A DNA stretch of 64,000 nt from Deltaproteobacteria bacterium (GTDB taxonomy: Bacteria > SAR324 > NAC60-12): the NCBI GenBank assembly GCA_038150265.1, contig JAYOTF010000013.1:1-64000 (forward strand). The letters run 5' to 3'. This document shows positions 1-20,487 of this stretch, one piece after another (position 1 is the first letter of the stretch; every line of letters starts with the position of its first letter). The notes below the pieces were generated by a model. The model saw nothing but the letters and a program-made list of their open reading frames with translations. It made no database searches and was not told the DNA's origin. A program made the translations under genes and the position numbers.

Positions 1-712
1 TCTGGAAGGCTCCGAGTTCCCCACGGAGGGAGGCCACCTGCTGCACAGCAGCGTCCACGAACTGCAGGGCATCCTGAGCGCCCGCCGTCGAAGTGACATC
101 AATGTCTGCCAGTGATTCGAAACCACTGCCATTGCTAATCGCTTCCACTTCCTTGGTCACCTCTCCACCGTCACGGGTGATGGTGACATTGAAGCCCAGG
201 TTGGTGGTGGCCATGTTCGGCAGCTCAACCGAAACCGTTTGCCCGGCGTTGGCGCCCACCTGGAAGGTCAGGCTCGAGTTGCTGCCGTCCAGCAGGTTCT
301 TGCGCGCATACTGGGTGGTGTTGGCAATGCGGTCGATGGCCGAAAGGGCATTTTCAATCTCTTGCTGGGAAGCCTCACGCATGGCGTCATCGTTGACCCC
401 TTCGTTGGCGGCAGCAATGGCCTGTTGGCGGATGTCCACCAGCAGACGGGCCACTTCGTTGAGAGCGCCCTCTGCGGTTTGCACCATCGTCACACCGGCT
501 TCGTTGTTGCGAGACGCTTGCTCCAGACCAGCGATCTGAGCCCGCATGTACTCGGAAACGACGAGGGCCGCAGGACCGTCTGCCGCTTTGTTGATCTTCA
601 CTCCCGAAGACAAGCGCTCCAGGCTCTTGGACATGGCCTCAGAGTTCTTGACCAGGTTGTGGTGGGCGACGTTGGCGCTGACGTTGTTGTTGATGCGAAG
701 TGCGGAAGCCAT
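1..712 (-). CDS. fliC: Flagellin (short type), 3' end runs off window; absent from ORF track
   Basis: Manual translation from ATG at 712: MASALRINNNVSANVAHHNLVKNSEAMSKSLERLSSGVKINKAADGPAALVVSE...QTAEGALNEV...FQVGANAGQ...LRGELGAFQ; close paralog of 2868..3776; AAGAGG upstream. Confidence 0.96.
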   Translation of the reverse strand, partial: MASALRINNNVSANVAHHNLVKNSEAMSKSLERLSSGVKINKAADGPAALVVSEYMRAQIAGLEQASRNNEAGVTMVQTAEGALNEVARLLVDIRQQAIAAANEGVNDDAMREASQQEIENALSAIDRIANTTQYARKNLLDGSNSSLTFQVGANAGQTVSVELPNMATTNLGFNVTITRDGGEVTKEVEAISNGSGFESLADIDVTSTAGAQDALQFVDAAVQQVASLRGELGAFQ

Positions 713-1013
713 AATAACCTCTTGAAGTTAGATAAAAAAATTCAAAGACACGAAATGGACTCCTCCTGGAACAATCAGCATTTCCTCCGATGAAATGCGG
801 TCGAAATCGGGAACTGCGCAGGGGCAGCGGCCGCTTGAGGAGAGCCAGCAAACGCTCATCCTTCCCGGGCTGATGAAAGCAGCGGCCCATGAACGGATCT
901 GCACCGCAAGGGTCCTCAACGCGTGAGGGAGGGACCGCCTTCCATGGTAGTCCCGTAAAAGCGGGCAGATGCGTGGTTCTGTTGGAGCCAGGACCCTGAG
1001 CCCTGGCTTCCGG

Positions 1014-1367
1014 TCAGCAACGATTCGTTGCCAAAAGCTGACGGAGCGCCTGAGCCGCTTGTTCCATACGGGCGGACTCCTGGGCCTGCCGTTTCTGGAA
1101 GAAGGAACTCAGGGGAGAGAGCCCGTGCGCCGACGATTCATCGGCATGGACCTCCAGAGGACGGACCCCTCGACCCCAGGCTTGACTTCGTAGCGGCTGC
1201 GTCAACCGGAGCCGAGGCTCGGCCTCCACACAGCGGTCAATGGTTTTCAACGCGACCTGTAACGCAAACGCGTCTCCTCCGGTCGACTCTGCAGACAGGG
1301 GACGTGAGTCCACTTGTGCGGAGTCCTGTTGCTTTCCCCCTTGTAGGCTTGGGAAGTCTTGCCACAT
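1014..1367 (-). CDS. Hypothetical 117-aa protein, flagellin-linked (paralog A)
   Basis: GGAG RBS; shares MWQ start, ALxTIDR block and C-terminal EQAAQALRxLLATxRC with 4040..4375. Confidence 0.8.
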   Translation of the reverse strand: MWQDFPSLQGGKQQDSAQVDSRPLSAESTGGDAFALQVALKTIDRCVEAEPRLRLTQPLRSQAWGRGVRPLEVHADESSAHGLSPLSSFFQKRQAQESARMEQAAQALRQLLATNRC

Positions 1368-1397
1368 GGGTTCACTCCAAAAATAAGGATAAGAAGA

Positions 1398-1460
1398 GCC
1401 TCTTCTCCATGAGGTAAAGGTACCGTTCCATGGCGCGCTTGTGTTTCACAGAGAAGAGGC
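1398..1460 (-). promoter_or_regulatory. Conserved structured leader element, copy 1
   Basis: 10-bp stem 1398-1407/1451-1460 enclosing core AAGCGCGCCATGGAACGGTACCTTT (minus strand), near-identical core in copy 2. Confidence 0.6.
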
Positions 1461-2815
1461 AAAGCCTAATCAAAGACTTGACCCATTTCCGGAAGGAGTT
1501 CCTGGGCTTCCATGTCCCCACTCGATTCCAGAAAAACAATGAACCTCGGCTAAGAAGATTCATGAACATTCCAGGGACAGCTGTCCCAGAAAACCGGTGT
1601 CATCCACGACTCGGTTTCCTTGCAAAAGTTCCAGAAGACTGGAAGCTTTGCGAGAAAACGGAGAGAGAGATCTTTTCTGATTAGGCCCGAAGCTGACTGA
1701 GTGATTGAGGGAAAAAGAACCCCTGCAACCCGTCTTGAGCCATTCCTTCTGAAAAAGATCTCGCAACCAATCGGCACCGTTTTGATTCAGCACTGCCCCC
1801 CAACCTGATCATAAAATTTGGGTGGAACCCCCTCGTTTGAGGACCCGGAGTTTTCTCCTTCTTGAAGCTTGGTTCTCCATCTCATTTTTCCTGCTTGAAG
1901 AAAAGTGAAGGGTGGCCGAAGTTTCGAGGAAAAAAGCTCTTGAGAAAAGACATCTCTTTGAGAATCCAGTTCCCCCTCCAACAAGAAGGTTTCGGGCCTC
2001 CAGAGAAAGGGTTTCCCAGCGCTCCGGAGGGTTTCTCTGTGCTTGAAAGAAGGCCTGGCTCTGTGAGAATTCCACCTTGAGGAGACTTTCGGAAGCCGCC
2101 CACCTTTTCAAAGAGAAAGATGGCGATTCCCTCGGTAAAGGGCTTCCTAGTTGTTTCAGCCCACGTTCCTCTGGCTAAAGTTCCCCCTTGCTCCTTTTCC
2201 CCGGGTCGGGTGGAAGGAGTCGAGGCTCAAGCGAGTTGCTTGAGATCGAAAGGTTCCGGAACTTCCTGGAAAGCCTGAATTCAAGTCCCTCTGAAAGAAA
2301 ACCCTCGAAGAAAATCGAGCAAGCCAGAGGAAAACGATTCTGGAGCCTGGTGTCCATTGGGTTCCAGCGAACCCGTGAAACGGGACGTCCAGCAGGTCTT
2401 CATGAGAGCCGAACCGATTCCTGTGTTTCTGAGTCAACAGACTCCGGAACGGAAGGCACTCTTGAGCAGACTCTGCAGAGGCCAGCTGTGTGGCTCTGGC
2501 CCACAGAGGTCGGGCGTTGACGGTTTGAAGAACAGCGGCGAAGACCGCAGGAGTTGCTTCAGGGTGTCAGGGTTCGCGACGGCGTGAGCCCAGCCAGCAA
2601 GGGGGCTTCAGTGCTAACGGTGCATTGTCAAAGATCGGGCAGTGCGCCTTCCCCTTACCCCGGGAAGGGCGTGCAGGGCTCCCTGTGACCTGAGACCGCT
2701 TGACGGCTTCAGGGCTTGGGAGCAAGTGAGGATGGATCAGGCCTGAGGCCCGTCAGTTCCCCAATTCAGCCTCCAGAGGAAGCTGAACTGGAGGACCGCT
2801 GGGGTCACTCCGATC

Positions 2816-2853
2816 GGGGTGAGGGAAGGGCGCCAGGCGCCTCCCCTCACTCC
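2816..2853 (-). terminator. Long GC-rich stem-loop just downstream of flagellin 2
   Basis: Inverted repeat ggggtgagggaagggcgcc/ggcgcctcccctcactcc about 15 nt after the stop; no clear U-tract. Confidence 0.5.
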
Positions 2854-2867
2854 GGAGGGGCTCGGGA

Positions 2868-3776
2868 TTAGGCGTTGAGCAACCGCAGGACGTTTTGCGG
2901 AAGCGCATTGGCCTGAGCCAGCTGAGCCGTTGCCGACTGAGTCATGATCTGGTTGCGAGTGAACTGTGCCATCTCGGCCGCCATATCGGTGTCGCGGATC
3001 ACAGACTCGGAGGCTGTCAGGTTCTCCTGAGCAATGCGGAGGCTGTTGAGGTTGCTCTCCAGGGTGTTCTTCTGGAAGGCACCCAACTCACCGCGGGTCG
3101 AAGCGACCTGCTCAATGGCCGCGTCGACCATGTTGATGGTGTCTTGAGCACCCATCGTGGACGTGACGTCCACATCGGCCAGGGACACGAAGCCACTACC
3201 ATTCTGAACCGGGTTAGTGGTCTTCACCGGCTTGCCGCTGGAGCGGTCAATGGTGACGTCAAAGCCAAGCTTGGTGGTGTTCATGCTGGGCATTTCCACC
3301 GAAACGGTCTGTCCGGAGTTGGCACCGACCTGGAACACAAGCTCCGGGTTGCTGCCGTCCAGCAGGTTCTTGCGAGCGTACTGCGTGTTGGCTGAGATCC
3401 GGTCGATGGCCGCCAGGGCGTTTTCGATTTCCTGCTGGGAGGCTTCCCGCATGGCCGGATCGTTGACCCCTTCGTTGGCAGCGGCAACGGCTTGCTGGCG
3501 GATGTCCACCAACAGACGACCCACTTCGTTGAGGGCCCCTTCCGCGGTCTGCACCATGGTGACGCCGGCTTCGTTGTTCCGGGTCGCCTGCTCCAAGCCG
3601 GCAATCTGAGCCCGCATGTATTCGGAAACGACCAACGACGCAGGACCATCTGCCGCCTTGTTGATCTTCATTCCGGAAGACAAGCGCTCCAGGCTGTCGC
3701 TGGTGGCCTCGGTGTTCTTCATCAAGTTGCGGTGAGCGTTGATGGCACTGGTGTTGTTGTTGATGCGAAGAGACAT
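2868..3776 (-). CDS. fliC: Flagellin (302 aa, minimal variable region)
   Basis: MSLRINNN, LERLSSGMKINKAAD, QTAEGALNEV, RGELGAFQ, IRDTDMAAEMA, AQANALPQNVLRLL. Confidence 0.97.
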   Translation of the reverse strand: MSLRINNNTSAINAHRNLMKNTEATSDSLERLSSGMKINKAADGPASLVVSEYMRAQIAGLEQATRNNEAGVTMVQTAEGALNEVGRLLVDIRQQAVAAANEGVNDPAMREASQQEIENALAAIDRISANTQYARKNLLDGSNPELVFQVGANSGQTVSVEMPSMNTTKLGFDVTIDRSSGKPVKTTNPVQNGSGFVSLADVDVTSTMGAQDTINMVDAAIEQVASTRGELGAFQKNTLESNLNSLRIAQENLTASESVIRDTDMAAEMAQFTRNQIMTQSATAQLAQANALPQNVLRLLNA

Positions 3777-3830
3777 AGGAACCTTTTTCGAGAAAATAAA
3801 TTTTCGTCAACAATCCTTCATGGATGGAAG

Positions 3831-4000
3831 GCAACTCGGTCCATGAGTTGCTCAAGTCACGGGGACTTCGGGTGAAGTGGCCACAACCGGAGTCGGGATC
3901 AATCCATCTGACTCCGCCCCTGCATCAAAGACATGTGGCGGTACCTGAAGATGACCATCCTGGTCATCAAGGAAAGACCGTCTTCCATGACAGTCCTTCC
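3831..4000 (-). promoter_or_regulatory. Flagellin leader with four GGA-loop hairpins (putative CsrA/RsmA sites)
   Basis: Hairpins 3831-3851 (loop AUGGACC), 3889-3915 (GGAUUG), 3950-3968 (CAGGAUG), 3971-4000 (AUGGAA) on the mRNA strand. Confidence 0.65.
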
Positions 4001-4039
4001 CCTCAAAAAGCGAGAGCGTGACCGCGTCAGCGGGTCACC

Positions 4040-4375
4040 TCAGCAGCGCGTCGTTGCCAGCAGGCGCCGGAGCGCTTGAGCAGCCTGCTCCAGACGGAGC
4101 TGTTCCTGCTCTTTCTGCTCTTGAAGAAAGACTTCGAGCTCCTCTCCCACCATGGCAAGAGGAGCCACCTGGGCCTCTTGCTTCAAGCGGGTCGGTTGCT
4201 CCCGGTTCCGGCGCAAGCGTTGCGAAAGTCCGGAGCCGGTAAAACGATCAATCGTTTGAAGGGCTTCCTGAATGGCAGCAGATTCAGCATCATGAAGACT
4301 CTGAGAACTGGCTGCTTCGCCCAAGGAAGACTTCCGGAACTCCAGTTCCGACAAGTTTGGGGAGTTCTGCCACAT
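4040..4375 (-). CDS. Hypothetical 111-aa protein, flagellin-linked (paralog B)
   Basis: Strong AAAGGAG RBS; paralog of 1014..1367 in the same position relative to a flagellin. Confidence 0.82.
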   Translation of the reverse strand: MWQNSPNLSELEFRKSSLGEAASSQSLHDAESAAIQEALQTIDRFTGSGLSQRLRRNREQPTRLKQEAQVAPLAMVGEELEVFLQEQKEQEQLRLEQAAQALRRLLATTRC

Positions 4376-4399
4376 GGCGTCTCCTTTCAGGTTTCAGAA

Positions 4400-4467
4400 G
4401 CCCCTTCCCCAGGTCGCAGAAAGGTACCGGGTCCATGGCGCGCTTTGGCTTCCATGGGGAAGGGGGC
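4400..4467 (-). promoter_or_regulatory. Conserved structured leader element, copy 2
   Basis: 11-bp stem 4401-4411/4455-4465 enclosing AAGCGCGCCATGGACCCGGTACCTTT. Confidence 0.6.
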
Positions 4468-4992
4468 AAGATCAAAAACAAACGCTTGGAGGCACGCAAG
4501 CCCACAGGGTCTGCTCCAGAACAAGAGGACTCTCGCTTGGACAGAGCCAGGAAGGCCTGGCTCCCGGACGCAACAGGGCCCGGGGCGTTCTCCTTGAAAA
4601 GTCATGGAGTTCTCGCCAGCACATTTGCGGTTGAGCACAAACGAGCAGACGGACTCCTGCCGATGAGTCCCGTTTCCGTTTCCGGATTTCGGACTCCTGC
4701 CGAAGAGAACAACAGTCCTCACTCGGTCGAGAGGCAACTCCGGGAAGAGCGAGCTCTTCCTCTTTGAGTCTGCCTAGACGGCACTCGGCTCTTCGCCGAG
4801 CTGACGTCTACACAGACCAAACGACGGCCTGCAACAAGGTGCTCCCTTGATGAGGTCCCACCCCACCACGAGGCGTCTGAAGACCAGGTGGTTGGATCCA
4901 ATCCTCCCGGGTTCTGGGCTCCAGCTGAGCCGAAGCCTCCGGAGCGGAAGAACAGCTGGGCAACCAGGCCTTCTTCTCCCGGACGGGCTCCG

Positions 4993-5108
4993 AGGTCATC
5001 AGGCGCACGACGACCTGCTGGATGGATTTCATCCACGGTCGATGGCCCCTGGTTCGCCAGGTCATCAGGCGCACGACGACCTGCTGGATGGGTTTCATCC
5101 ACGGTCGA
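4993..5108. repeat. Tandem 50-bp direct repeat (66-bp period), each unit with two hairpins
   Basis: aggtcatcaggcgcacgacgacctgctggatgg(a/g)tttcatccacggtcga at 4993-5042 and 5059-5108, one mismatch. Confidence 0.9.
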
Positions 5109-5914
5109 CGCCCCCCGGAATTCCAGTGCGGCCGGTCTTGACGCCACTCGGGAGAAGGCGGCTGCGAGGAAGCCGTGAGGCTTTCCCGGTCGAGCGGCAG
5201 ATCTCCCTCCGAACTTCTGGTGAGAAGGTCGACGGGTTCCGGACGTAACGGTTCGGTTCCTCACAGCAAGACGAACCCCGGAGTGTGGAGACACGTCAGC
5301 CATGGGCAGAAGCGTTCCGGCTGTTCTGCCGTTTCGCTTGAGCGACCTGGGGAGCAAGGGCCTTGCTCTCCTGCGAGGAGATTCCGCCACCCAAACCGAG
5401 GCTTCCCTGGTTGAGCGATCTTCCGCCACCGGGATTTCTGGGAGCTGGATTGCGCCAGCCTGGTCGAAAATCCCGTGAGCGGGTGAACGCGTTCCCTGGG
5501 CATCAGCCTTCACGCAAGCCCTCAGCGGATGCTCGACGCGTAGAAATAGAGCTCCGGAGGAGAAGGCGCGTTGCCCTGGACCGGTCCCGGCAGCAAGTCT
5601 GGACGAATCCAGAGCCGGGCAAGTCCCAGAGCAGGCAACCATTCTCTTGCGGAAATGAAGGGGCATCAGCCTTCTCCAAGTCGGTGCAGCAGTCCAGATT
5701 CCGGGCAGTCCCGGAACCCTCCTCACAAAACAGGGCGCAGCGCAGCGCAAGGAACACGTCCTTCGGTGTGCGGCTCCCTGTTTCCAGAGGGGACCATCGG
5801 ATTCCATTCCGACGCCTTCAGAGCTACCTGTAGAGGGGTGGGTTCAGGAGATTCAGTTGTCAAAGAACTCATGGAATGCCTCCATTGCTGGAGTGAGAAG
5901 GTCCATGACCCTTC

Positions 5915-6931
5915 TCAGCAAGCGGAAGGGGAGCGGCAGGTAAATCCCTGCGTGGCACTCCACCGCCAGTCATGAGCGGGATGAAGGTGAACCCCACCGA
6001 TCCAGTCGTCCTGCGTGTGCACCGCCAGCCAGTCCGCCTGCTCCTGCAGCACGGACCAACCCCGTGGGGTCAGGGAGGCTTGGAACTGCTGAAACGTCTC
6101 ATCCGGAAAGGGCTCCCGGGGCACCGCATAAAACGGTTCCGGACCCGTGAGTTCCAGGAGAGGAAATTCGGCAGTTCCCAGCAGCGCAATCTGTCGCCAG
6201 AAGGACCAGTCCCCCATGAAGCGAATGGGTTCCTGGGCCTGCGTGGCCGAAAAGAGGTCCACGACCCGGCGGGTTCCCGCAGCAACCGCCTGAAGAATGA
6301 GGCGTTGCGTCTGGGAAAGCCCCGTTTGGGAATCCGGATACTCCTGCGCGAGGCGGAGCAGTCCGGTTCGCAGAAAGGGCAGAGCCGAAAGGTCCTGACG
6401 CAGAAAGCGACCGAATCGTTGAGGAGACGGTGCTGTGAAGCACCGCCAGCCTTCTTGTCCAAGAGCCTGCTGCTCCTCTGTCAGCACCTTCCGGTTCTGG
6501 AAGGCGGACTGGAGCGCGGATTGGGCGTGAGGGGCTCCGAGGTAATTGGCCACGAAGACACACGACACCCGTGTTCGGTTCAGAAGCTCGGGCCCGATTC
6601 CTGCCGGAGGCGCTGAGAGCAGATGAAGGATTTGGAGCAACTGGAGCTGGTCATAAAGCTCAAAGCTGTTCCAGAGCAACACCTCTGTCTCAGAAGCGAG
6701 GGCCTGTGCCAACGCCTGGTTCCGCAGACGGAACTGTTCCCGGGCGTTCTCCTCAGAATCCCATCCGCACGCCGCAAGAAAGCGGGCGCGAGCATCATTC
6801 AGTTGTTCCGGAGTCAAGGCTCCGGGGACGGGTCCGTCATGGAGGACGTCCCGCCAACTCAGAAAGCGCCCAGGCAACCCTGCTGCGCGTAAAACCGTTT
6901 CGGCACAATCGCCGTTGACCAGGTGCAACAT
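5915..6931 (-). CDS. DUF1835-like protein
   Basis: N-terminus MLHLVNGD...WRDVLHDGPVP, later LYDQLQ and FMGD motifs; start chosen at ATG 6931. Confidence 0.75.
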   Translation of the reverse strand: MLHLVNGDCAETVLRAAGLPGRFLSWRDVLHDGPVPGALTPEQLNDARARFLAACGWDSEENAREQFRLRNQALAQALASETEVLLWNSFELYDQLQLLQILHLLSAPPAGIGPELLNRTRVSCVFVANYLGAPHAQSALQSAFQNRKVLTEEQQALGQEGWRCFTAPSPQRFGRFLRQDLSALPFLRTGLLRLAQEYPDSQTGLSQTQRLILQAVAAGTRRVVDLFSATQAQEPIRFMGDWSFWRQIALLGTAEFPLLELTGPEPFYAVPREPFPDETFQQFQASLTPRGWSVLQEQADWLAVHTQDDWIGGVHLHPAHDWRWSATQGFTCRSPSAC

Positions 6932-7102
6932 GGACCATCTTTCGCCTGGAAAGAGGGCGTCCTTGCACGGCAGGAGGTGCCGCTCCTCCATGAGCGGCAG
7001 CGAGCGACCCGAAAGGAACCAGGTTCCGGTGTTCGGGGCACTGCGCCTGTGAGAAGGCTTCCGCGGGCGGAACACCTCCTTCCGGAGAGGCTTCTCTGGA
7101 CT

Positions 7103-8638
7103 TCAGGTGAAGCAGGAAGCACTCATGAGAGGCACCGTCTCGGGGTGCTGGACCGGGAACGGCAGGCGTTCCAGAATGTCCTGATGGAGGTCCACCCCCG
7201 GGGCCAGTTCGATCAGCTCCAGTGCTCCCGTTCCGGACGCCTCCGGCTTCAGGCGGAAGACCGCCCGCTCGGTGATGTACAGCACCGGCTGGCCCCGTTC
7301 CTGGGCGTAGGCGCCACTGAAGGTGATCTGCTCCACATGCGAGACGAGTTTGGGCGTTCCTTCCCGGACAACCCGGAGCCTTCCCGACGAGAGGTCCAGC
7401 TCCGCATGGGCCGAAAACAGCCCCACAAAGTAGAGGGCCTTGGCGTTCTGGCTGATGTTGATGAAGCCACCAGCCCCCGCCAGCTTGGGACCAAACTTGC
7501 TCACATTGACATTTCCGGAGGCATCCAGTTGAGCCATGCCGAGAAATGCCTGATCCAGTCCGCCCCCGTCGTAAAAGTCGAACTGGTACGGCTGGTCGAT
7601 GATCGACTCCGGATTCGTCACTGCTCCAAAGCTCAGCCCGGAGGCCGGCATTCCGCCAATGCCTCCCGGCTCAACTGTCATCGTGATCGTTGACAACACC
7701 CCGTTTTCTGATGCAACGGAGGCGATGCCTTCCGGCATGCCGATGCCCAGATTCACCACTGCCCCCGGACGCAGCTCCTGCGCCGCTCGGCGAGCGATGA
7801 CCTTCCGTTCATCCAGAGCCAGGGGCGGCAGCATCGTCAGCGGACGATGGACCTCGCCACAGTAGGCCGGATTGAACGGCTCCAGAAGCGTTTGGGCGTG
7901 ATACGCCAGAGGCGACTCCACCACCCAGTCCACGAGGATGCCCGGAACCTTCACCATCTGCGGAGAAAGCCGGTGCTGCTCGGTGACACGCTCCACCTGA
8001 ACGATGACCACGCCTCCGGAATTCCGGACGGCCTGCGCAATGGAAAGAGCTTCCAGCGTCAGGGCCTCGCGTTCCATCGTGATGTTTCCCGCCAGGTCCG
8101 AAGTGGTCCCTCGGATCAAGGCGACCTGGAGGGGGAAAGCTGGGTAAAACAGCCACTCCTGCCCGCGGAGCGAGACGAGTTCCACCAGGTCTTCAGTGGT
8201 ACGGCTGTTGAGCTTGCCTCCTTCCAGACGCGGGTCCACAAAGGTCCGGAGCCCCACGTGAGTGAGGACACCGGGCTTGTTGCCCGCAATGGCTCGGTAG
8301 AGGTGCGTCAGAACGCCTTGCGGCAGACAGTACGCCTCCAACTCGCCCTGTAAGGCCATCTTCCCGAGCTTGGGGACCAATCCCCAGTGTCCGCCGACCA
8401 CACGCTTCACCATGCCCGGGTGGGCAAAGTGGTTCACGCCGGCCCGGTCGCCATCCCCCTGACCCGCGGCATAGACCACGGTCAGGTTTCCGGGAGATCC
8501 GGACGCCAGGAACTGCTCCTCAAGCCCCGTCAATAGGTACTCTGGGGACCCCGTGGCCACAAAGCCACCGGTCACCACGGTGTCTCCCGGACGGATGTGC
8601 GCAAGCGCTTCTTCCCGGGAAACAATCTTGGATTTCAT
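7103..8638 (-). CDS. Acyl-CoA:acetate/propionate CoA-transferase (YdiF/Pct family)
   Basis: [60 protein letters not shown]. Confidence 0.92.
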
Positions 8639-12412: not shown

Positions 12413-12856
12413 TTAACCTTGAGCGCGGAAGGTGCCTCGCTCGGCAGCTGCCTGGACAGCGGCTTTTTGCTTCTGGGCGGCATTCTGCTGACGCAGCTGG
12501 TTCCAGCCCTGCCGAAGGGTTTCGGCGACTTTGATGAGTTCCCGGATCACTTCCGGGTCCTTGCGCAGGTTGGCTTCCACGATGCGGCGGAACATGTACA
12601 GGTACAGCTCCCGCAGGTTTTTGCCAATCTCGCCGGTGTTCTCCACCCGGAGGGTCGAGAGCAACTCGTTGACGATGTCCTTGCTTCGCATCAGGTAGTT
12701 GTGCGTGCCTTCGATGTCGTTGGCTTCTGCACGAGACTCCGCTTTGCGAAGGAAGCGGACCATGCCGTCGTAGAGCATGATGATCAGGGTCAGCTGATCA
12801 GAGGTTTGGACGTTCGTTTGATAGTACGCCCGATAAGACTGGTTTGGGGTGCGCAT
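12413..12856 (-). CDS. fliS: Flagellin export chaperone FliS (paralog 2)
   Basis: LIIMLYDG, IVNELLSTL, GEIGKNLRELYLYM, LRQGW. Confidence 0.92.
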   Translation of the reverse strand: MRTPNQSYRAYYQTNVQTSDQLTLIIMLYDGMVRFLRKAESRAEANDIEGTHNYLMRSKDIVNELLSTLRVENTGEIGKNLRELYLYMFRRIVEANLRKDPEVIRELIKVAETLRQGWNQLRQQNAAQKQKAAVQAAAERGTFRAQG

Positions 12857-12870
12857 TAATCCCTCCTGGA

Positions 12871-13326
12871 TTACCCTCTTAAATTAAGACGTTTGTCAAC
12901 AGACGCGTTCGGAGTGGGGCGAACGGAGGCCTTGCCGGGGGTGACGGCTTTTTGGGGCGTTCCGATGTGGACCCACGCTTCACGCAGCTCCTTGAGCAGA
13001 CCAAGAACCACCTTGGCCGGCTCCGGATTCTTTTGCACATTGGCTTCAATGAGCTGGCTGAACATAAAGCTGTAGAGGCTTTGGAGGTTCTTGGCGATCT
13101 CGCCCCCCTTTTCGAGGTTCAGAGACGACATCAGCTCAGCCACAATGTTCTTGGACTTCACCAAGGCATTGTGCGTGCGTTCGATCTCCTTCTTCTGCAT
13201 GGACTCAATGGCGAACGCTGTGTTCTTGATTGCTCCGTCGTAGAGCATGACAATCAGCTTGTTCTGATCAAGCGTGTTGACCGCTGCACGTTTGTAGGCG
13301 CTTTGATAACCGCTGTACGGATTCAT
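12871..13326 (-). CDS. fliS: Flagellin export chaperone FliS (paralog 1)
   Basis: LIVMLYDGA, ELMSSLNLEKGGEIAKNLQSLYSFM, ELREAW. Confidence 0.94.
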   Translation of the reverse strand: MNPYSGYQSAYKRAAVNTLDQNKLIVMLYDGAIKNTAFAIESMQKKEIERTHNALVKSKNIVAELMSSLNLEKGGEIAKNLQSLYSFMFSQLIEANVQKNPEPAKVVLGLLKELREAWVHIGTPQKAVTPGKASVRPTPNASVDKRLNLRG

Positions 13327-13371: not shown

Positions 13372-16300
13372 TCAGCCGTCCTTCTTCTGGCCGCCTCCGC
13401 CCAGGGCAGAGAGCTGCTGACTGACGTAGTTCTGCTGAGACCGTAACCGGCCCATGGTGCTATCGAGTTTGGCGAATTTGAGCTGAAGCTGCTGGTGCTT
13501 CGAGTCAATCCGCTCATTCATGCGCTTGAGCTGCTCATCGTAGCTGCTCATCTGTTCGCTCAGGTCCTGGGTGACCTTCTTGTACTTGCCGTTGATCGGG
13601 CTGTTGATTTCGTCCAGCTTCTCCTGGAGCTTGACGGCCACGCCCTTGGTCACGGTGACGCTGGCCTCCGGACCTTCCTTGAGCTCCTTCTCATTCAGGG
13701 TCACGTACACCCGCAGGCCATCAGCGCTTGAGCCATCCGGACCCAGCAGGAGCTGCCCCCGTCCGGGAGCTTCCACCCCATCGATGGTGCCTTCGACATC
13801 CTGACCATTGGTCTGGGTCGCAGAAGAGAGCCCCAGGGCATCAAGGTTCTTGTCTTCTCCAGGTTCGACCTCCACTGAGGAGTTCTTGCCGTAGGAGCCC
13901 GACACAAACCGCAGCCCTCCCTGGAAGGCCTCGACCTGAATGCCACGCCGTCCCAGAACCTTGTCCTCATTGAGGCTCTTCTGGATCGACTTGGCCAGGC
14001 TGGAGACGGTATAGACGTCCTTGCGTAGCTCAATCGGGTCCGAGGCCCGACCGTTGTTCCGGACAACGAGCACGTTGTTCGTGTCATCAATCCGGACCAT
14101 GCCTCCCGGAATGGCTTCTCCCAGCAGGGTGCCCTTCTTGGCCACCTGGGTGACATCGACCTTGTACCCTTCCGGGCTGATCTTGGTCTTGTCGCCCAGT
14201 CCCACAAAGGAGACTCCGGGGTTGTCGGATTCGCCGTTGCTGCGGAACAGGTTGGCGACCGACACAAAATCGTTCTCAATCTTCTCACTGAGCTTCTTGT
14301 CGTCCAACGACATGGTGCCCTTGTCGTTGATGCGCAACCCGATGGAGAAGAGCATGTTGGTCGCCGGAGGCAACCCCGCCACGGTGGCAATGGTCGTCGT
14401 CGCAATGTCGTTGGTGATCTGCGTGAGGTTGCGATCACTCAACAGCGGCGCGGCCGTGTTCGTGGCCTTGTCAAACTTCGACAGCTCCTTGGCCGTGGCC
14501 TGATAGGTGTTGTACGCGTCCACAAAATCCTGAACCCGTTCCCGGGCCTTGTCCGTGTCGCCAATCACCGAAACGGTCACCAGGTCCTTGCTTGGAGAGA
14601 GGAACTCCAGGTCCAGGCCGGGAATGATGTCGTTGGCCTTGTTCTCCGACCGGCGGACTTCGAGGCCGCCCCCCTGATCCGACGCCCCAAGGCGCAGGAC
14701 CAGATCCTTTGCCTGCCGCACCGTTGAGGTGTAGGTCCGGATCTGGAAGCGATCTCCTTCGTACAGGTCTCCGGGGCCAAGCGCGACATTCAGGCCACTG
14801 TCAAAGGGAACCGGTGTCCCCGGGCGGTAGCCTTCGCCCATGTTGATGACCCCTTTGTTGCCCTGGTCATCTTCCCAGTCGACCAGCAGGGCTCGGGTGA
14901 TGCCCACGCCGCCTCGACGCCGCACCGAAAAGGTGTACGTCTTGGCCAGGTCCTGATCGAAGGAGCCGGTGACGCGGATTTCCGCGGTGCTGACGTTGCC
15001 TCCGTATTCCGGAAGCCCATCTTCCACTTTCGGACGGTTGGCATCCCGAACTTCAGGATCCTGGTCCTCGTAAGGGCTCCACTCGGCCACCTCATCGACC
15101 TTCCCGGTCACGCCCCGAACCTCGTCAGGGAGCCACCACCAGCTTTCGGAGGTGGGAGCCTTGAGGTCGATCTCGGCGGTGTCTCCGTCTTGCAGCACAC
15201 CGGGGGGAACCTCAATGAACAGCCCGTTCCCGATGGGCAGCGACGTGGGCCCTGCCTGGGCGCCGTCTTCGCCGTTGAACTTCAGGTCAAACAGCGCTTC
15301 GCCGTCTTTCGAGTCGTAAGCGGTCGCCGTTGCCGGATCACGCTGGTCCACCGACTCGGACTGATACGGGTAGCTGAGGCTCAGCTCGCCCTTTTCCCCA
15401 GTCTCCGTGAACTCGTAGTGCAGCACCAGGGGCGTCTTGCCGCCGACCTGACCACTGCCCTGAACGCGGAAGATGACCTGCTGGTCGTCTTCGCCTTCGT
15501 ACTGCCCGGTGACGTGAATGCCCCCCTTCTCCCCCTTCAGTCCCCAATCGCTGGGCGAGTAGACCTTGGAGGCGCGGTCGGCGTCACTGAGCCACCACAG
15601 CATGTCGGAGCGGGCGGCTCGGGCCTTGACCTTGAAGCTGTCGCCACTGACGATCTCACCGTCACTGAAGCGCAGCTGGATGCCATCAACCACGTCCACA
15701 GGGGTGCCTGGGGAGTAGTTGTATTCATTGATCTCAATCTGCCCCTCACGGCCCTGGCTGTCGGACCAGCCGAGGACCACGCCTTCAGGCGATGGGACCA
15801 TTCCGGCTTTCAAGACCCGGAAGGTGAGCTCAATGTCTTCCTCCCCGGTGTAGTTGCCGGTGGAGTCGATGATCGGTGTGGAGGCTCCTGCGCCTCCTCG
15901 CTCAATCGGCTTGGGCGGAGCGACCTCCAGTCCTTCCCAGCTGGCCGTCTCGTCGTGCCGGTTCCGGAAGTCGGGGGCATTGTCGGCGCCCTGGAGGTTG
16001 ACGGAAATGTTGATCCGTCCCTCTTCCCCCGTCCGTTTGCTGGTCAGCAGCAAGCGGTAGGGCTGATCGCCATGGGTGCGGGCAATGAAGGCCTCCACCT
16101 CGGCTTCCGACTCGTTGATGGTCCGTCGGAGGCCTTCCAGCGTGTTGTTGTCGTCGTCAATGGTCAGCGTGACTGGAGAATCCTCCTCGTTGTTGCCGAC
16201 CTTGATGCTGATGGAGCCGGTGCCAATGCGGGTGTCTTCCGAGTCAAAGCCCTGCGAAGCAATCTGGTGCGAGAGGGCGACGGAATCGACCGCAATGACG

Positions 16301-16596
16301 GTCTTGCCGGGCTTTGCATCCCGACGGGCTCGGGCCACCACGACTTCCGGGTGACTGGACTCGACGCTGCGAGCCTCCCAGATGTCGGTGCTGTCAAGCG
16401 AGGTGACGACGTCCTGCAGCTTGTCGAGCTCTGCTTTGACAATGCTCCAGGATTCAATCTCCTTGAGCTTCTCATCCTTGCGTTGCTGGATGGGCTCAAG
16501 CTTCCGTTTTTCGATTTTGACGAAGCGGTCAACAATCTCCTGGGTGTTCATCTTGGAACCCAGACCGGTTACCGCATTCGGATTCAGTTCCGCCAA
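13372..16596 (-). CDS. fliD: Flagellar filament cap FliD, enlarged (1074 aa)
   Basis: N-terminal TGLGSKMNTQEIVD; FVDAYN; C-terminal LQLKFAKLDSTMGRLRSQQNYV; lies between flagellin and fliS. Confidence 0.92.
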   Translation of the reverse strand: MAELNPNAVTGLGSKMNTQEIVDRFVKIEKRKLEPIQQRKDEKLKEIESWSIVKAELDKLQDVVTSLDSTDIWEARSVESSHPEVVVARARRDAKPGKTVIAVDSVALSHQIASQGFDSEDTRIGTGSISIKVGNNEEDSPVTLTIDDDNNTLEGLRRTINESEAEVEAFIARTHGDQPYRLLLTSKRTGEEGRINISVNLQGADNAPDFRNRHDETASWEGLEVAPPKPIERGGAGASTPIIDSTGNYTGEEDIELTFRVLKAGMVPSPEGVVLGWSDSQGREGQIEINEYNYSPGTPVDVVDGIQLRFSDGEIVSGDSFKVKARAARSDMLWWLSDADRASKVYSPSDWGLKGEKGGIHVTGQYEGEDDQQVIFRVQGSGQVGGKTPLVLHYEFTETGEKGELSLSYPYQSESVDQRDPATATAYDSKDGEALFDLKFNGEDGAQAGPTSLPIGNGLFIEVPPGVLQDGDTAEIDLKAPTSESWWWLPDEVRGVTGKVDEVAEWSPYEDQDPEVRDANRPKVEDGLPEYGGNVSTAEIRVTGSFDQDLAKTYTFSVRRRGGVGITRALLVDWEDDQGNKGVINMGEGYRPGTPVPFDSGLNVALGPGDLYEGDRFQIRTYTSTVRQAKDLVLRLGASDQGGGLEVRRSENKANDIIPGLDLEFLSPSKDLVTVSVIGDTDKARERVQDFVDAYNTYQATAKELSKFDKATNTAAPLLSDRNLTQITNDIATTTIATVAGLPPATNMLFSIGLRINDKGTMSLDDKKLSEKIENDFVSVANLFRSNGESDNPGVSFVGLGDKTKISPEGYKVDVTQVAKKGTLLGEAIPGGMVRIDDTNNVLVVRNNGRASDPIELRKDVYTVSSLAKSIQKSLNEDKVLGRRGIQVEAFQGGLRFVSGSYGKNSSVEVEPGEDKNLDALGLSSATQTNGQDVEGTIDGVEAPGRGQLLLGPDGSSADGLRVYVTLNEKELKEGPEASVTVTKGVAVKLQEKLDEINSPINGKYKKVTQDLSEQMSSYDEQLKRMNERIDSKHQQLQLKFAKLDSTMGRLRSQQNYVSQQLSALGGGGQKKDG

Positions 16597-16752: not shown

Positions 16753-18510
16753 TTAGTTGCCCACGTTCAGCAGTTGCAGGACGGAGCGAGGAACCTGGTT
16801 GGCCTGGGCCAGCATGGCGGTTCCGGAGGAGAGCAGGATCTGGTTCTTGACCAGGTGGCTCATCTCTTCGGCCATGTCGGTGTCAGCCAGCTGCGATTCG
16901 GAAGACGTCAGGTTCTCACGAGCAACCCGCAGGTTGTTGAGGTTGGTCTCCAGAGAGTTCTTCTGGAAGGACCCCAGACGTCCCCGCAGGGAGGAAACAT
17001 CGCCGATGGCCGCATCGACCACCAGCAGCGCGTCCTGAGCGAGATCCGCTCCTCGGACGTCGATGTCTGCCAGGCTGCGGAAGCCACTTCCGTTTTCGAC
17101 GTTGGTGGCCAGGAATTCCGGATTGATGCTCCGGACCGAAATCTTTCCCTGTTGGCCGTAGTTGGGGCCAATCTGGAAGTTCAGGGAGTTCTGAGTGACG
17201 TGGACGTAGCCGTCAATGGGCTCGCCGACGAGCAGGTCGTTTCCGTTCTCCTGCTTGAAGAGTCCCGCCACTCGGTTGTCAATGCGGTTGAAGACTTCGT
17301 AGATGACGTCGTCTGTGGTGTTGGAGTACCGAACCTTGACGCCTTCTGCCGGAGTTCCGGGAGCGCCGGTGAGGTACTGGCCTTCTCCGAGGGCTGGCTC
17401 GCCAACACCAGTCTCCGGGTTCCCGCCGATCGAGCCTTCCACATCCCGTCCGGGGATGGAGAAGATGGCTTCGTTGGCCGGTGTGTCTTCCTGGAAGAAG
17501 TAATCCAGGGTCGTGGAGACGGTAAAGTTGGGCGCGCTGCCGAAGTCTCGGTGGCGGATGACGATCACCTCTTCATCGCCCACCAGGTCCTTGATTTCCC
17601 CCGGGTACTCGGCGAGCTTGCGCAGCGCGTCGTCCAGGGTGTTGAAGTCGGAGATGTATTCGCCCAGTCGCTCGGAGGGGCGGTAGACCATCACTTCCAC
17701 GTTCATGCCGGCGTCATCCACCTGCCGCTGCATCTCACTGACGATGAGCTGCTGAACCGCTCGCTCAGCCCGGTAGATGGCATCCGGGGAGCCGTCGCGC
17801 AGAGCGGCGCTGGCCAGCTTTTCGATCTGGCTGTTCAGCTCCTTGTTCTTGTTGAGGTCAATGCCAACGGTGCGTTTGCCTTCGTTGATCACAAAGGACA
17901 CGACCTTGTTCGGGTCGGAAGAGACCACGTCTTCCAGGTGCAGGGCACGGGTCGCGACCAGGAAGGACCGGGTGGCGACCTGGGTGATGTCCACCTTGTA
18001 GCCTTCAGCAGGAGACGACTTGCTGACCTCCGTGGCGCCGATGAAGTCCAGTCCGTTGCCGACGGCAACACCGGTTGCGGCATTGCTGCCGTCCAGCAGC
18101 GTTTGGGTGCCGAACTGCGTGTTCTTGGCAATGTTCCGGATGGTCGCCAGCAGGTTCTCAATTTCGATCTGGTCCGCCTCGAGCATCTTCTCATCGTTGG
18201 CCCCTTCGTTGGCCGCGTGCACCGCCAGCTGGCGGAGGTTGATGAGGATGTTGCTGACCTCGCTCAGGGCGCTTTCCGTGGTTTGAATCATGGAGATCGA
18301 CGTCTCCGAGTTCTGAACGGCTTGCCCAAGCGACTCAATCTGAGACTTCATTTGCTCGGAAATCACCAGGGAGGCGGGTCCGTCGGCGGCGCGATTCAAG
18401 CGTCGTCCCGAGGAGAGCCGCTCCAGGTTGCCCGTGAGTTCTCGCTCCGTGCGGTTCAGTTGCCGCAGAGCGTTGAGGGCTGCTATGTTGGAGTTGACCC
18501 GAAGTGCCAT
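16753..18510 (-). CDS. fliC: Flagellin (long type, 585 aa)
   Basis: MALRVNSNIAALNA, LERLSSGRRLNRAAD, RGRLGSFQKN, DTDMAEEM, AQANQVPRSVLQLL. Confidence 0.96.
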   Translation of the reverse strand: MALRVNSNIAALNALRQLNRTERELTGNLERLSSGRRLNRAADGPASLVISEQMKSQIESLGQAVQNSETSISMIQTTESALSEVSNILINLRQLAVHAANEGANDEKMLEADQIEIENLLATIRNIAKNTQFGTQTLLDGSNAATGVAVGNGLDFIGATEVSKSSPAEGYKVDITQVATRSFLVATRALHLEDVVSSDPNKVVSFVINEGKRTVGIDLNKNKELNSQIEKLASAALRDGSPDAIYRAERAVQQLIVSEMQRQVDDAGMNVEVMVYRPSERLGEYISDFNTLDDALRKLAEYPGEIKDLVGDEEVIVIRHRDFGSAPNFTVSTTLDYFFQEDTPANEAIFSIPGRDVEGSIGGNPETGVGEPALGEGQYLTGAPGTPAEGVKVRYSNTTDDVIYEVFNRIDNRVAGLFKQENGNDLLVGEPIDGYVHVTQNSLNFQIGPNYGQQGKISVRSINPEFLATNVENGSGFRSLADIDVRGADLAQDALLVVDAAIGDVSSLRGRLGSFQKNSLETNLNNLRVARENLTSSESQLADTDMAEEMSHLVKNQILLSSGTAMLAQANQVPRSVLQLLNVGN

Positions 18511-20169: not shown

Positions 20170-20367
20170 CTAGACGAACTCTCCGTCCAACTCGGCTTCC
20201 CAGTCCGAGTCTTCCAGGTTCAGCATGCCGCCGCCCAGATTGACCCGCCGACGGGTGTCTTCGGAGTTGGTGGAGTCCAAACGCGTGATGGTGCCTCCGC
20301 GCTGAAGGAATTCAGCCACGGCCTGGTCCAATTCGTTTCGGGTGATTTCGGGTTCGCGCTGTTGCAT
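20170..20367 (-). CDS. Small protein with SutA-like RNAP-binding motif
   Basis: RNELDQAVAEFLQRGGTITRL resembles the xxEFLxRGGxI core of SutA; acidic tail. Confidence 0.7.
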   Translation of the reverse strand: MQQREPEITRNELDQAVAEFLQRGGTITRLDSTNSEDTRRRVNLGGGMLNLEDSDWEAELDGEFV

Positions 20368-20487
20368 GCGAGCAAACTGAGGAGAGGGAAGTGGTTTCAC
20401 GAGAAGACCTTGAATGAGGAAAACCAAAAATTATCGGATGACTTGATGGAGGTGTCAACCTAAATTCAAGGGCTCTCGTGAAAATTC

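Follow-up and report, generated by a model that had tools for sequence, protein, structure and literature searches.

Two short flagellin genes at the start of contig JAYOTF010000013.1 (C13) of a Deltaproteobacteria bacterium (assembly GCA_038150265.1; GTDB lineage SAR324, NAC60-12) are each preceded by a small open reading frame (ORF; the small one is called sORF below), and we are highly confident that this small gene is real and linked to its flagellin. The protein family that it encodes is undescribed in the libraries searched, and all its carriers among the genomes searched belong to four genera within a single family of uncultured bacteria. The window analysed here is the first 64,000 nt of the contig; its genome (G000) comprises 3.39 Mb in 87 contigs, and G001 and G002 are two other species of the same genus (g1; other genera are numbered likewise). 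All features of the two modules lie on the minus strand, where the order from 5′ to 3′ is sORF-B, a 263-nt gap, flagellin 2, a 1.5-kb spacer, sORF-A, a 301-nt gap and flagellin 1:

4376 to 4561, minus strand: 5′ leader of sORF-B, with a stem-loop at 4400-4467 around an invariant AUGGA block at 4421-4439
4040 to 4375, minus strand: sORF-B, 111 aa, paralogue of sORF-A (ORF, paralogue alignment, dN/dS, RNA contigs)
3777 to 4039, minus strand: flagellin-2 leader (six-copy alignment, consensus fold, RNA contig)
2868 to 3776, minus strand: flagellin 2, 302 aa (Pfam Flagellin_N, E 7.8e-33; Flagellin_C, E 3.6e-22)
1368 to 1595, minus strand: 5′ leader of sORF-A, with a stem-loop at 1398-1460 around an invariant AUGGA block at 1417-1434
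1014 to 1367, minus strand: sORF-A, 117 aa, member of the same family (ORF, paralogue alignment, dN/dS, RNA contigs)
713 to 1013, minus strand: flagellin-1 leader or intergenic region (six-copy alignment, consensus fold with compensatory changes)
2 to 712, minus strand: flagellin 1, short type (ORF; the 5′ 237 codons are present and the 3′ end is lost at the contig end)

The two flagellins show 79% identity over 235 aligned residues, and sORF-A and sORF-B align over their whole length (BLASTP, 45 of 121 positions identical, 37%, E 5e-14). A previous sequence-only reading had described paralogous small ORFs with good ribosome-binding sites upstream of both short flagellins, and this description is borne out: GGAG and AGGAG lie 7-9 nt 5′ of the sORF start codons, and the two gaps given above are the distances from sORF stop to flagellin ATG (301 nt for sORF-A, 263 nt for sORF-B). 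The three conserved blocks that it listed are also seen in an alignment of six sequences from the genus, in which M1 and W2, A..AL..IDR, and E.A..AL..LL.T..C at the extreme C-terminus are invariant.

Both small ORFs are genuine protein-coding genes. The two copies occupy the same places in G001 and G002, and start, stop and ribosome-binding site are kept in the three species. Against G002, the ratio of nonsynonymous to synonymous substitution rates (dN/dS) is 0.131 for sORF-A (dS 1.1) and 0.116 for sORF-B (dS 0.9), which is the purifying selection that the sequence-only reading had proposed to look for. The nucleotide differences at codon positions 1, 2 and 3 number 17, 12 and 56 in sORF-A (56 of 85 at position 3) and 12, 9 and 47 in sORF-B (47 of 68 at position 3). 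Because the adjoining flagellins show the same dS (0.74-0.96), the sORFs have had an equal divergence time, and their protein-level constraint is looser than that of the flagellins (dN/dS 0.03-0.045, with flagellin 2 at 0.045). ORFs this short, in a GC-rich genome with many spurious ORFs and with longer overlapping antisense frames, might be suspected to be open by chance within a conserved non-coding leader; however, the concentration of differences at codon position 3 with dN/dS of about 0.12 effectively refutes this, start and stop are kept across four genera of widely different GC content, and the 216 relatives described below are of near-fixed length, so that we give this explanation almost no weight.

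Contigs from four salt-marsh metatranscriptome runs, which record presence only (strand and level are not given), match the window with 0-1 mismatches over 1129-1595 (sORF-A from 1129, plus its leader) and over 4040-4561 (all of sORF-B plus its leader, with contigs reaching 4535-4561 at the leader end), and one contig covers 3649-4022, the flagellin-2 start and nearly its whole leader, with 0 mismatches. No contig from the four runs lies over 1741-2262, 2611-2784 or 4699-5200, an absence that is not evidence of silence. In the sORF-A leader, contigs of two runs end at 1594 and 1595, which weakly suggests a 5′ end there. Upstream of the RNA-contig ends a block ACTTTT..CAAG..CCG(A/T)G is shared; sigma-28, sigma-54 and extracytoplasmic-function-type promoters were sought there by eye, and no assignment fit all copies. 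A consensus scan of the gene strand found no sigma-70 promoter, and terminator-like sites were no commoner than in shuffles.

The sequence-only reading had regarded the small ORFs as orphans, which they are not, since at least 216 unnamed relatives exist in four genera. A single-sequence search of 5.8 billion clusters returned only the query itself and one 80% relative. When a profile of the six sequences of the genus was run exhaustively against 1.84 billion representatives, only the family itself and P0006 came back; the latter, a 1175-aa protein, owes its inflated score to repeated ..AIQ.ILKDLDGY units and was rejected as spurious. A contig scan of genomes matched two sister metagenome-assembled genomes and nothing further. 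When the genus profile was run over 64 genomes of the order, three weak matches appeared in other genera (E 0.018-0.037), all of them 120-121-aa ORFs directly 5′ of a co-oriented flagellin and ending in ..LR.LL.T..C. A profile rebuilt from the six genus sequences and these synteny-found matches recovers 216 proteins at E≤0.01, without a Pfam domain and, if named at all, called 'hypothetical protein'. Most are 121 aa long (81 of the 123 sequences examined exactly so; range about 103-122 aa). The rebuilt profile matches 16 of the 45 genomes of the taxonomic family at E≤4e-4 (3/3 in g1, 3/3 in g12, 9/18 in g11 and 1/3 in g4) and 18 of 45 at a looser cut-off of E≤0.1, including one contig-end fragment and one doubtful match; it has no match in 18 genomes of eight other genera. 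The relatives carry the NCBI label 'Deltaproteobacteria bacterium'. In an alignment of 32 sequences A38, A98, L102 and L106 are invariant and T108 nearly so, and the terminal Cys is usual, with Ser instead in about 15 of about 120 sequences.

No known family was recognised, in agreement with the sequence-only reading, which had named FlaG, FlaF, FlbT, FliW and FlgM. In Pfam, both window sORFs lack a known-family match and lack a FlgM match even at E≤10; a whole-Pfam hmmscan of 32 members gave 20 weak unrelated families, none of them FlgM, FlaG, FliS, FliW, FlaF, FlbT, FliT or FlgN; and NCBIfam has no match for the family. The best hit of a sequence-profile search of the PDB was malate dehydrogenase at E 0.5, Foldseek against the PDB gave 0 matches at E≤10, and the ESM Atlas held unnamed 121-aa clusters only, with no usable named match. 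A wide VIA-align comparison reached a best Z of 5.0, to single long helices and coiled coils over residues 61-111, and is uninformative. A full-text search of a limited literature collection found no description of such a flagellin-linked gene. AlphaFold2, given 6 or 32 sequences, places a confident long C-terminal helix at residues 73-107 (predicted local distance difference test, pLDDT, 85-96) and a middle helix at 24-46 (pLDDT about 75-80), the remainder being of low confidence. The predicted architecture is a short helix in the middle, a linker that is variable and disordered, and a long amphipathic C-terminal helix ending in LL.T..C; neither a signal peptide nor a membrane segment is visible by eye in the family proteins.

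Linkage to one flagellin locus and its duplication

Synteny with flagellins in related genomes, another check named by the sequence-only reading, is consistent throughout. Among 13 sORF loci inspected outside genus g1, a flagellin starts 200-500 nt 3′ of the sORF on the same strand in 11, which are all those long enough, the contig of the remaining 2 ending about 360-500 nt past the sORF. Thus, on the three points on which that reading had staked itself, the ORFs match no known family, both are under purifying selection, and their homologs stand beside flagellins. Upstream, a gene for an M24 (creatinase/prolidase-type) peptidase lies 5′ of the sORF in 12 of the 13 loci, and the thirteenth (G023) retains a 19-residue remnant only. 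The gene order in g4 (M24 peptidase, sORF, 486-aa flagellin, 477-aa flagellin-like gene, mnmE) matches that of G001 and G002 (sORF-A, flagellin 1, 487-aa flagellin-like gene, mnmE), and G001 carries sORF-B, flagellin 2, M24, sORF-A and flagellin 1 in this order. The order shared by g4 and g1 points to an ancestral unit with a single sORF, set between the M24 peptidase gene and one particular flagellin, and the unit of sORF and flagellin was duplicated in this genus before its three species split, with both copies kept. The duplicated module of the sequence-only reading is therefore real and has been retained, but it is confined to this genus and derives from one copy. In G000 the continuation of flagellin 1 probably lies on contig C66, where the downstream flagellin-like gene of 487 aa has its ortholog. 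That gene was also considered as sharing the distribution of the sORF, which was ruled out by orthologue-level matches in 11 of 12 genera.

Flagellin N-domains are encoded at 16 loci of G000 (tblastn, E≤1e-10), and an sORF is present at 2 of the 16, both of them the short flagellins described here. The remaining loci are on contigs C6, C20, C23, C11, C5, C66, C42 and C41 and at 16756-18510 of the window; C6 carries a tandem array of six flagellins, most flagellin frames of this genome are 490-630 aa long, and 16 such loci make an unusually large repertoire for a 3.4-Mb genome. Short flagellins were also followed in genera g2 and g7. That of G034 in g2, a genus that lacks the sORF (L047 1441-2349, a 320-aa frame), is preceded by ~900 nt, reaching to the contig end, in which neither strand has an ORF of 60 aa or more and which may be a long non-coding leader; the flagellin of G008, tried as an sORF-type locus, belongs to a different locus beside mutY.

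Since an M24 peptidase gene or its remnant precedes the sORF at every one of the 13 loci, the small gene could be a hitch-hiker without flagellar function, tied for instance to this peptidase and kept near flagellin by inherited gene order only; all carriers are related, so that their synteny is not independent evidence. However, the M24 ortholog is gone from G000 and G002, which retain just a 30-31% paralogue at another place, and sORF-A is still under selection there; the duplicate sORF-B stayed with a flagellin and without the peptidase; and the M24 ortholog of genus g3 has an unrelated gene after it, with neither sORF nor flagellin downstream. Because the sORF was kept after loss of the M24 gene and was duplicated without it, the small gene travels with the flagellin rather than with the peptidase. 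The sORF leader and the flagellin leader also have an AUGGA hairpin in common, as described below, and we consider the hitch-hiker explanation unlikely.

ORF-less stretches of about 1.5 kb, 1368-2867 and 4376-5914, flank the modules in an otherwise compact genome. The first occupies the position of the M24 peptidase gene of relatives; it was tried as a decayed copy of that gene and rejected, as tblastn found no remnant (best E 0.85). Between G000 and G002 the spacers align near genes only, over about 300 nt 5′ of sORF-A (76%), 89 nt 5′ of sORF-B and 266 nt beside a DUF1835 gene, and the middle ~900 nt is unalignable. One metatranscriptome contig of 256 nt matches 2322-2576 with 1 mismatch, and something may be transcribed there; its start overlaps a sub-threshold Rfam match to NiCo-AnGGAG at 2312-2383 on the plus strand (E 0.033; 26 bits, where the gathering score is 64.5), which is probably due to chance. 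In the second stretch, an imperfect tandem repeat at 4996-5110 (period about 33, 3.2 copies, 58% matches) falls within a 362-aa Arg/Pro/Gly-rich frame at 4719-5807 on the minus strand, which has no Pfam match.

RNA leaders and the probable CsrA/FliW link

The structured leader that the sequence-only reading had proposed is evident in all six sORF copies of the genus. About 45-55 nt 5′ of the start codon they share an invariant AAGCG(C/A)GCCAUGG..GG(U/C)ACCUU, a block better conserved than the coding sequence, and 6 of 6 leaders fold alike (z -1.6 to -3.6) into a small apical hairpin with AUGGA in its loop, set atop an outer stem of 10-15 bp. The sequence of the outer stem varies by copy and its complementarity is kept (GCCUCUUCUC/GAGAAGAGGC vs GCCCCUUCCCC/GGGGAAGGGGC). 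The apical AUGGA loop (AUGGG in sORF-A of G001) is present in 5 of the 6 minimum-energy folds, the block itself being invariant in 6 of 6, and in 5 of the 6 genus sORFs the Shine-Dalgarno (SD) sequence contains GGA (GGAG, AGGAG or CAGGAG). The flagellin leaders of the genus contain two hairpins. The first, GGGACUGCC-AUGGAC-GGCGGUCCC, has 9 pairs and lies about 200-220 nt before the ATG; the second, GCAUUUC-AUCGGAG-GAAAUGC or GCAACUC-AUGGACC-GAGUUGC, has 7 pairs; and in the six copies both show compensatory pairs, changed on both sides. In the window they are placed as follows:

931 to 954, minus strand: flagellin-1 leader hairpin 1, loop AUGGAA
778 to 798, minus strand: flagellin-1 leader hairpin 2, loop AUCGGAG
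3975 to 3996, minus strand: flagellin-2 leader hairpin 1, loop AUGGAA
3831 to 3851, minus strand: flagellin-2 leader hairpin 2, loop AUGGACC

Both motif types occur at this locus only in the genome (2 + 2 matches). An Rfam search of window positions 1-8000 at E≤1 gave 3 sub-threshold matches, none of them in the leaders.

According to PMC4894983, CsrA binds ANGGA in the loops of stem-loops of the Campylobacter jejuni flaA leader, FliW antagonises CsrA, and other late genes of C. jejuni such as flaG are CsrA targets as well; our criterion for a CsrA-type leader, ANGGA in a loop, is taken from the same paper. Adjacent csrA and fliW genes are present in G000 downstream of flgL on C4 (CsrA 89.7 bits, FliW 129 bits). 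By this criterion the sORF and flagellin leaders are of the known CsrA/FliW-type design and are candidate operators, and the sORF of this genus carries, as judged from sequence, the same putative RNA signal as its flagellin.

Outside the genus, the flagellin leaders of g11 and g12 have a GGA hairpin together with an AAGGAG SD. The spacer between sORF and flagellin in g11 (L031, L032, L034, L036, L038 and L039) is about 455-505 nt long and contains conserved blocks, namely an A/T-rich stretch, a CCGGA..UCCGG hairpin, a GC-rich middle, GUAUUC-UAUUGGAAGG-GAAUAC and the AAGGAG SD; it is a long structured flagellin leader.

Possible roles of the small protein

From its genomic context, the sORF protein is perhaps a late-flagellar accessory protein that acts on the neighbouring flagellin, a role that we favour tentatively. 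It might escort, hold or dose one flagellin among roughly 14-16 paralogues. The conserved residues of the C-terminal helix, A98, L102 and L105/L106 (positions 98, 102 and 105/106), fall on one face, as expected of a helix that packs on a partner, and contact could be made through this hydrophobic face. The sORF mRNA of the genus would present a classical two-site CsrA operator, with the AUGGA loop and the GGA in the SD about 50 nt apart, and the two ANGGA-loop hairpins of each flagellin leader would be CsrA targets too; taken together, these sites suggest that small gene and flagellin are probably released jointly by the FliW-CsrA checkpoint after hook completion. A complex prediction for flagellin 2 with sORF-B, run without controls, scored 0.00 against a mark of 0.32 and is no evidence either way.

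Several observations weigh against a flagellin-directed role under CsrA control. Conserved synteny alone can outlast any functional link, and 27 of the 45 genomes of the taxonomic family have no match at E≤0.1, yet 43 of the 45 have flagellin genes, so that the sORF is not needed for flagella in general. The AlphaFold2 model has no compact fold (predicted template modelling score 0.26-0.27), and the isoelectric point, which runs from 4.9 in g1 to 10.3 in g11, fits neither the stereotype of an acidic chaperone nor a constant nucleic-acid-binding character. The SDs of the genus flagellins (AAGAGG, AAAAGG) lack GGA, unlike the textbook second CsrA site, and in g11 and g12 the region upstream of the sORF shows no significant structure (z -2.1 to +0.2); the structured AUGGA leader is thus a feature of this genus, and the family as a whole does not share CsrA control of the sORF. 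Finally, DNA carry-over is possible in the RNA libraries.

A FlgM-like or FlaG-like checkpoint protein would be small, largely disordered, and exported by flagellar type III secretion or docked at the gate; up to completion of the hook-basal body, a regulator (a sigma factor) would be bound by its C-terminal helix, or this helix would compete at FlhA. The disordered N-terminus, variable linker and conserved C-terminal helix of the sORF protein fit such a design, as do the late-gene context and the CsrA-type leader, and FlaG, a small flagellin-neighbour protein, reportedly competes with FliS-flagellin at FlhA (PMC11536152). However, each of the three genomes of the genus encodes a bona fide FlgM (51-52 bits, cut-off 25 bits; the true FlgM of G000, at G000:C4:17415-17543, is also recorded at 50.5 bits), none of 32 family members matches the FlgM (PF04316) or FlaG model at E≤1, and the N-terminus is conserved within genera only. 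This explanation is improbable, to about the same degree as the hitch-hiker.

The sequence-only reading had proposed a dedicated per-flagellin partner or a flagellin mimic that serves as a decoy for FliS or FliW, a mechanism that the present evidence does not support; the flagellin-like motif is below significance. In the mimic version the middle helix copies the ND1 end of flagellin (EIENAL.AIDRI..TQF) and the C-terminal helix copies D0, and the protein titrates FliW or FliS and so tunes the CsrA partner switch. The likeness of the middle block to the flagellin helix is reproducibly the best profile-profile alignment: with hhalign, the only alignment of the family to flagellins joins this block to the ND1-end EIENAL.AIDRI, over 16 columns (probability 2.1%, E 0.023 in a single comparison) and, with a deeper family profile, over 25 columns (probability 5.8%, E 0.0065 in a single comparison; ..AL.lIDr...dSrlg in the family, ..aL..Idris.nTqf in flagellin), and the two blocks are ordered as in flagellin. 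Neither alignment is significant, however, the family has no Pfam match to Flagellin (PF00669 / PF00700), and BLASTP of the sORFs against flagellin finds nothing (E 1-2). The loose resemblance of the C-terminal block to the D0 end that had been suggested was recovered by neither BLASTP nor hhalign, and FliS copies (2 in g1, g12 and g4, 1 in G066 of g11) do not follow the sORF copies. The flagellin-like motif is thus a lead and not a finding, and a mimic or decoy is doubtful indeed. An equally long shot is a flagellin-derived mini-protein, which would have kept no more than the ND1-end motif (..AL..IDR...) and a C-terminal helix like that of D0 and would stand in for the neighbouring flagellin; switched on by the same CsrA checkpoint, it would occupy FliW, FliS or the docking site on FlhA and set the timing and order of translation and export of one flagellin. 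Such a stand-in, if real, would add a protein layer not known before to the flagellin partner switch and provide a means of ordering flagellins in multi-flagellin filaments.

A protein that binds the RNA of the downstream flagellin leader and regulates its translation, in the manner of FlbT or FlaF, seems no more probable than the mimic. The g11 members are strongly basic (isoelectric point 8.9-10.3, 21-29 K+R in about 120 aa), the flagellin leaders are long (200-500 nt), conserved and structured, and FlaF and FlbT are of similar size and position; on the other hand, g1 members are acidic to neutral (isoelectric point 4.9-7.9), no member matches an FlbT or FlaF model, and CsrA and FliW already supply this layer of control.

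Other flagellar genes lie nearby. Two adjacent FliS paralogues of 147 and 151 aa (E 1e-35 and 2.5e-38) are encoded at 12416-13326, next to a very long FliD of 1074 aa (13375-16596), and a 585-aa flagellin adjoins as well. Beyond mnmE, two conserved small ORFs of about 111 and 155 aa are found in G002 (L010 313-1119) and G001 (L011 264-1071); they were tried as FlgN-like and FlaG-like without Pfam support at E≤0.001, and by eye the shorter presumably ends like FlaG proteins. An 85-aa ORF at 20173-20427 has a match to the SutA RNA-polymerase-binding domain that lies above the cut-off of 29.3 bits (31.2 bits, E 1.4e-7).

Comparison with known systems

Bacteria with many flagellins must choose which flagellin is made and exported, and when; FliS, FlaG, FliW/CsrA and hierarchies of sigma factors are the means known for this choice. 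In the present genome a conserved small gene is private to a single flagellin locus among about 16; it was duplicated together with the flagellin and bears a CsrA-type signal in the genus. Should the sORF protein act on the adjacent flagellin, it would add a new factor specific to one flagellin and offer a handle on the order of multi-flagellin filaments; even otherwise, more than 200 proteins now annotated as 'hypothetical' are united in an unnamed family whose genomic signature is clear.

FlaF and FlbT are proteins of 110-140 aa that are encoded in alpha-proteobacterial flagellin clusters and set flagellin translation, and the genomes that have them are usually without the FliW/CsrA module; the sORF family matches neither model and belongs to another lineage. 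FlgM is a late-flagellar protein of about 100 aa, largely disordered, with its function in C-terminal helices; unlike the sORF family, it is recognised by its own model, and the true FlgM of these genomes is encoded elsewhere. FlaG is a small protein encoded by flagellin genes that limits filament length. Like it, the sORF product is a small protein beside flagellin genes, with probable late expression, and is proposed to modulate the fate of one flagellin; unlike FlaG, to which it has no sequence match, it is predicted to be helical or disordered. HP1076 of Helicobacter pylori is described, in PMC7248283, as a helical FliS co-chaperone and a lineage-restricted addition to the FliS-flagellin system. 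Both FliS and HP1076 are small, helical and active on flagellin ahead of its export, as is proposed for the sORF protein, which in contrast has no FliS-model or fold match and is encoded in a genome with two genuine FliS genes at 12416-13326.

The closest likeness of the leaders is to the CsrA-FliW-flagellin switch of C. jejuni flaA and Bacillus subtilis hag, with which they share ANGGA loops, compensatory stems and adjacent csrA and fliW genes. Two differences from that switch are evident: the best predicted two-site operator belongs to a small gene that is not a flagellin, and the flagellin SDs are without GGA, their first hairpin lying ~200 nt 5′ of the ATG. The leader is therefore a known design, whereas the protein family is undescribed in the libraries searched, and in kind it would belong with the small lineage-specific flagellin accessory genes.

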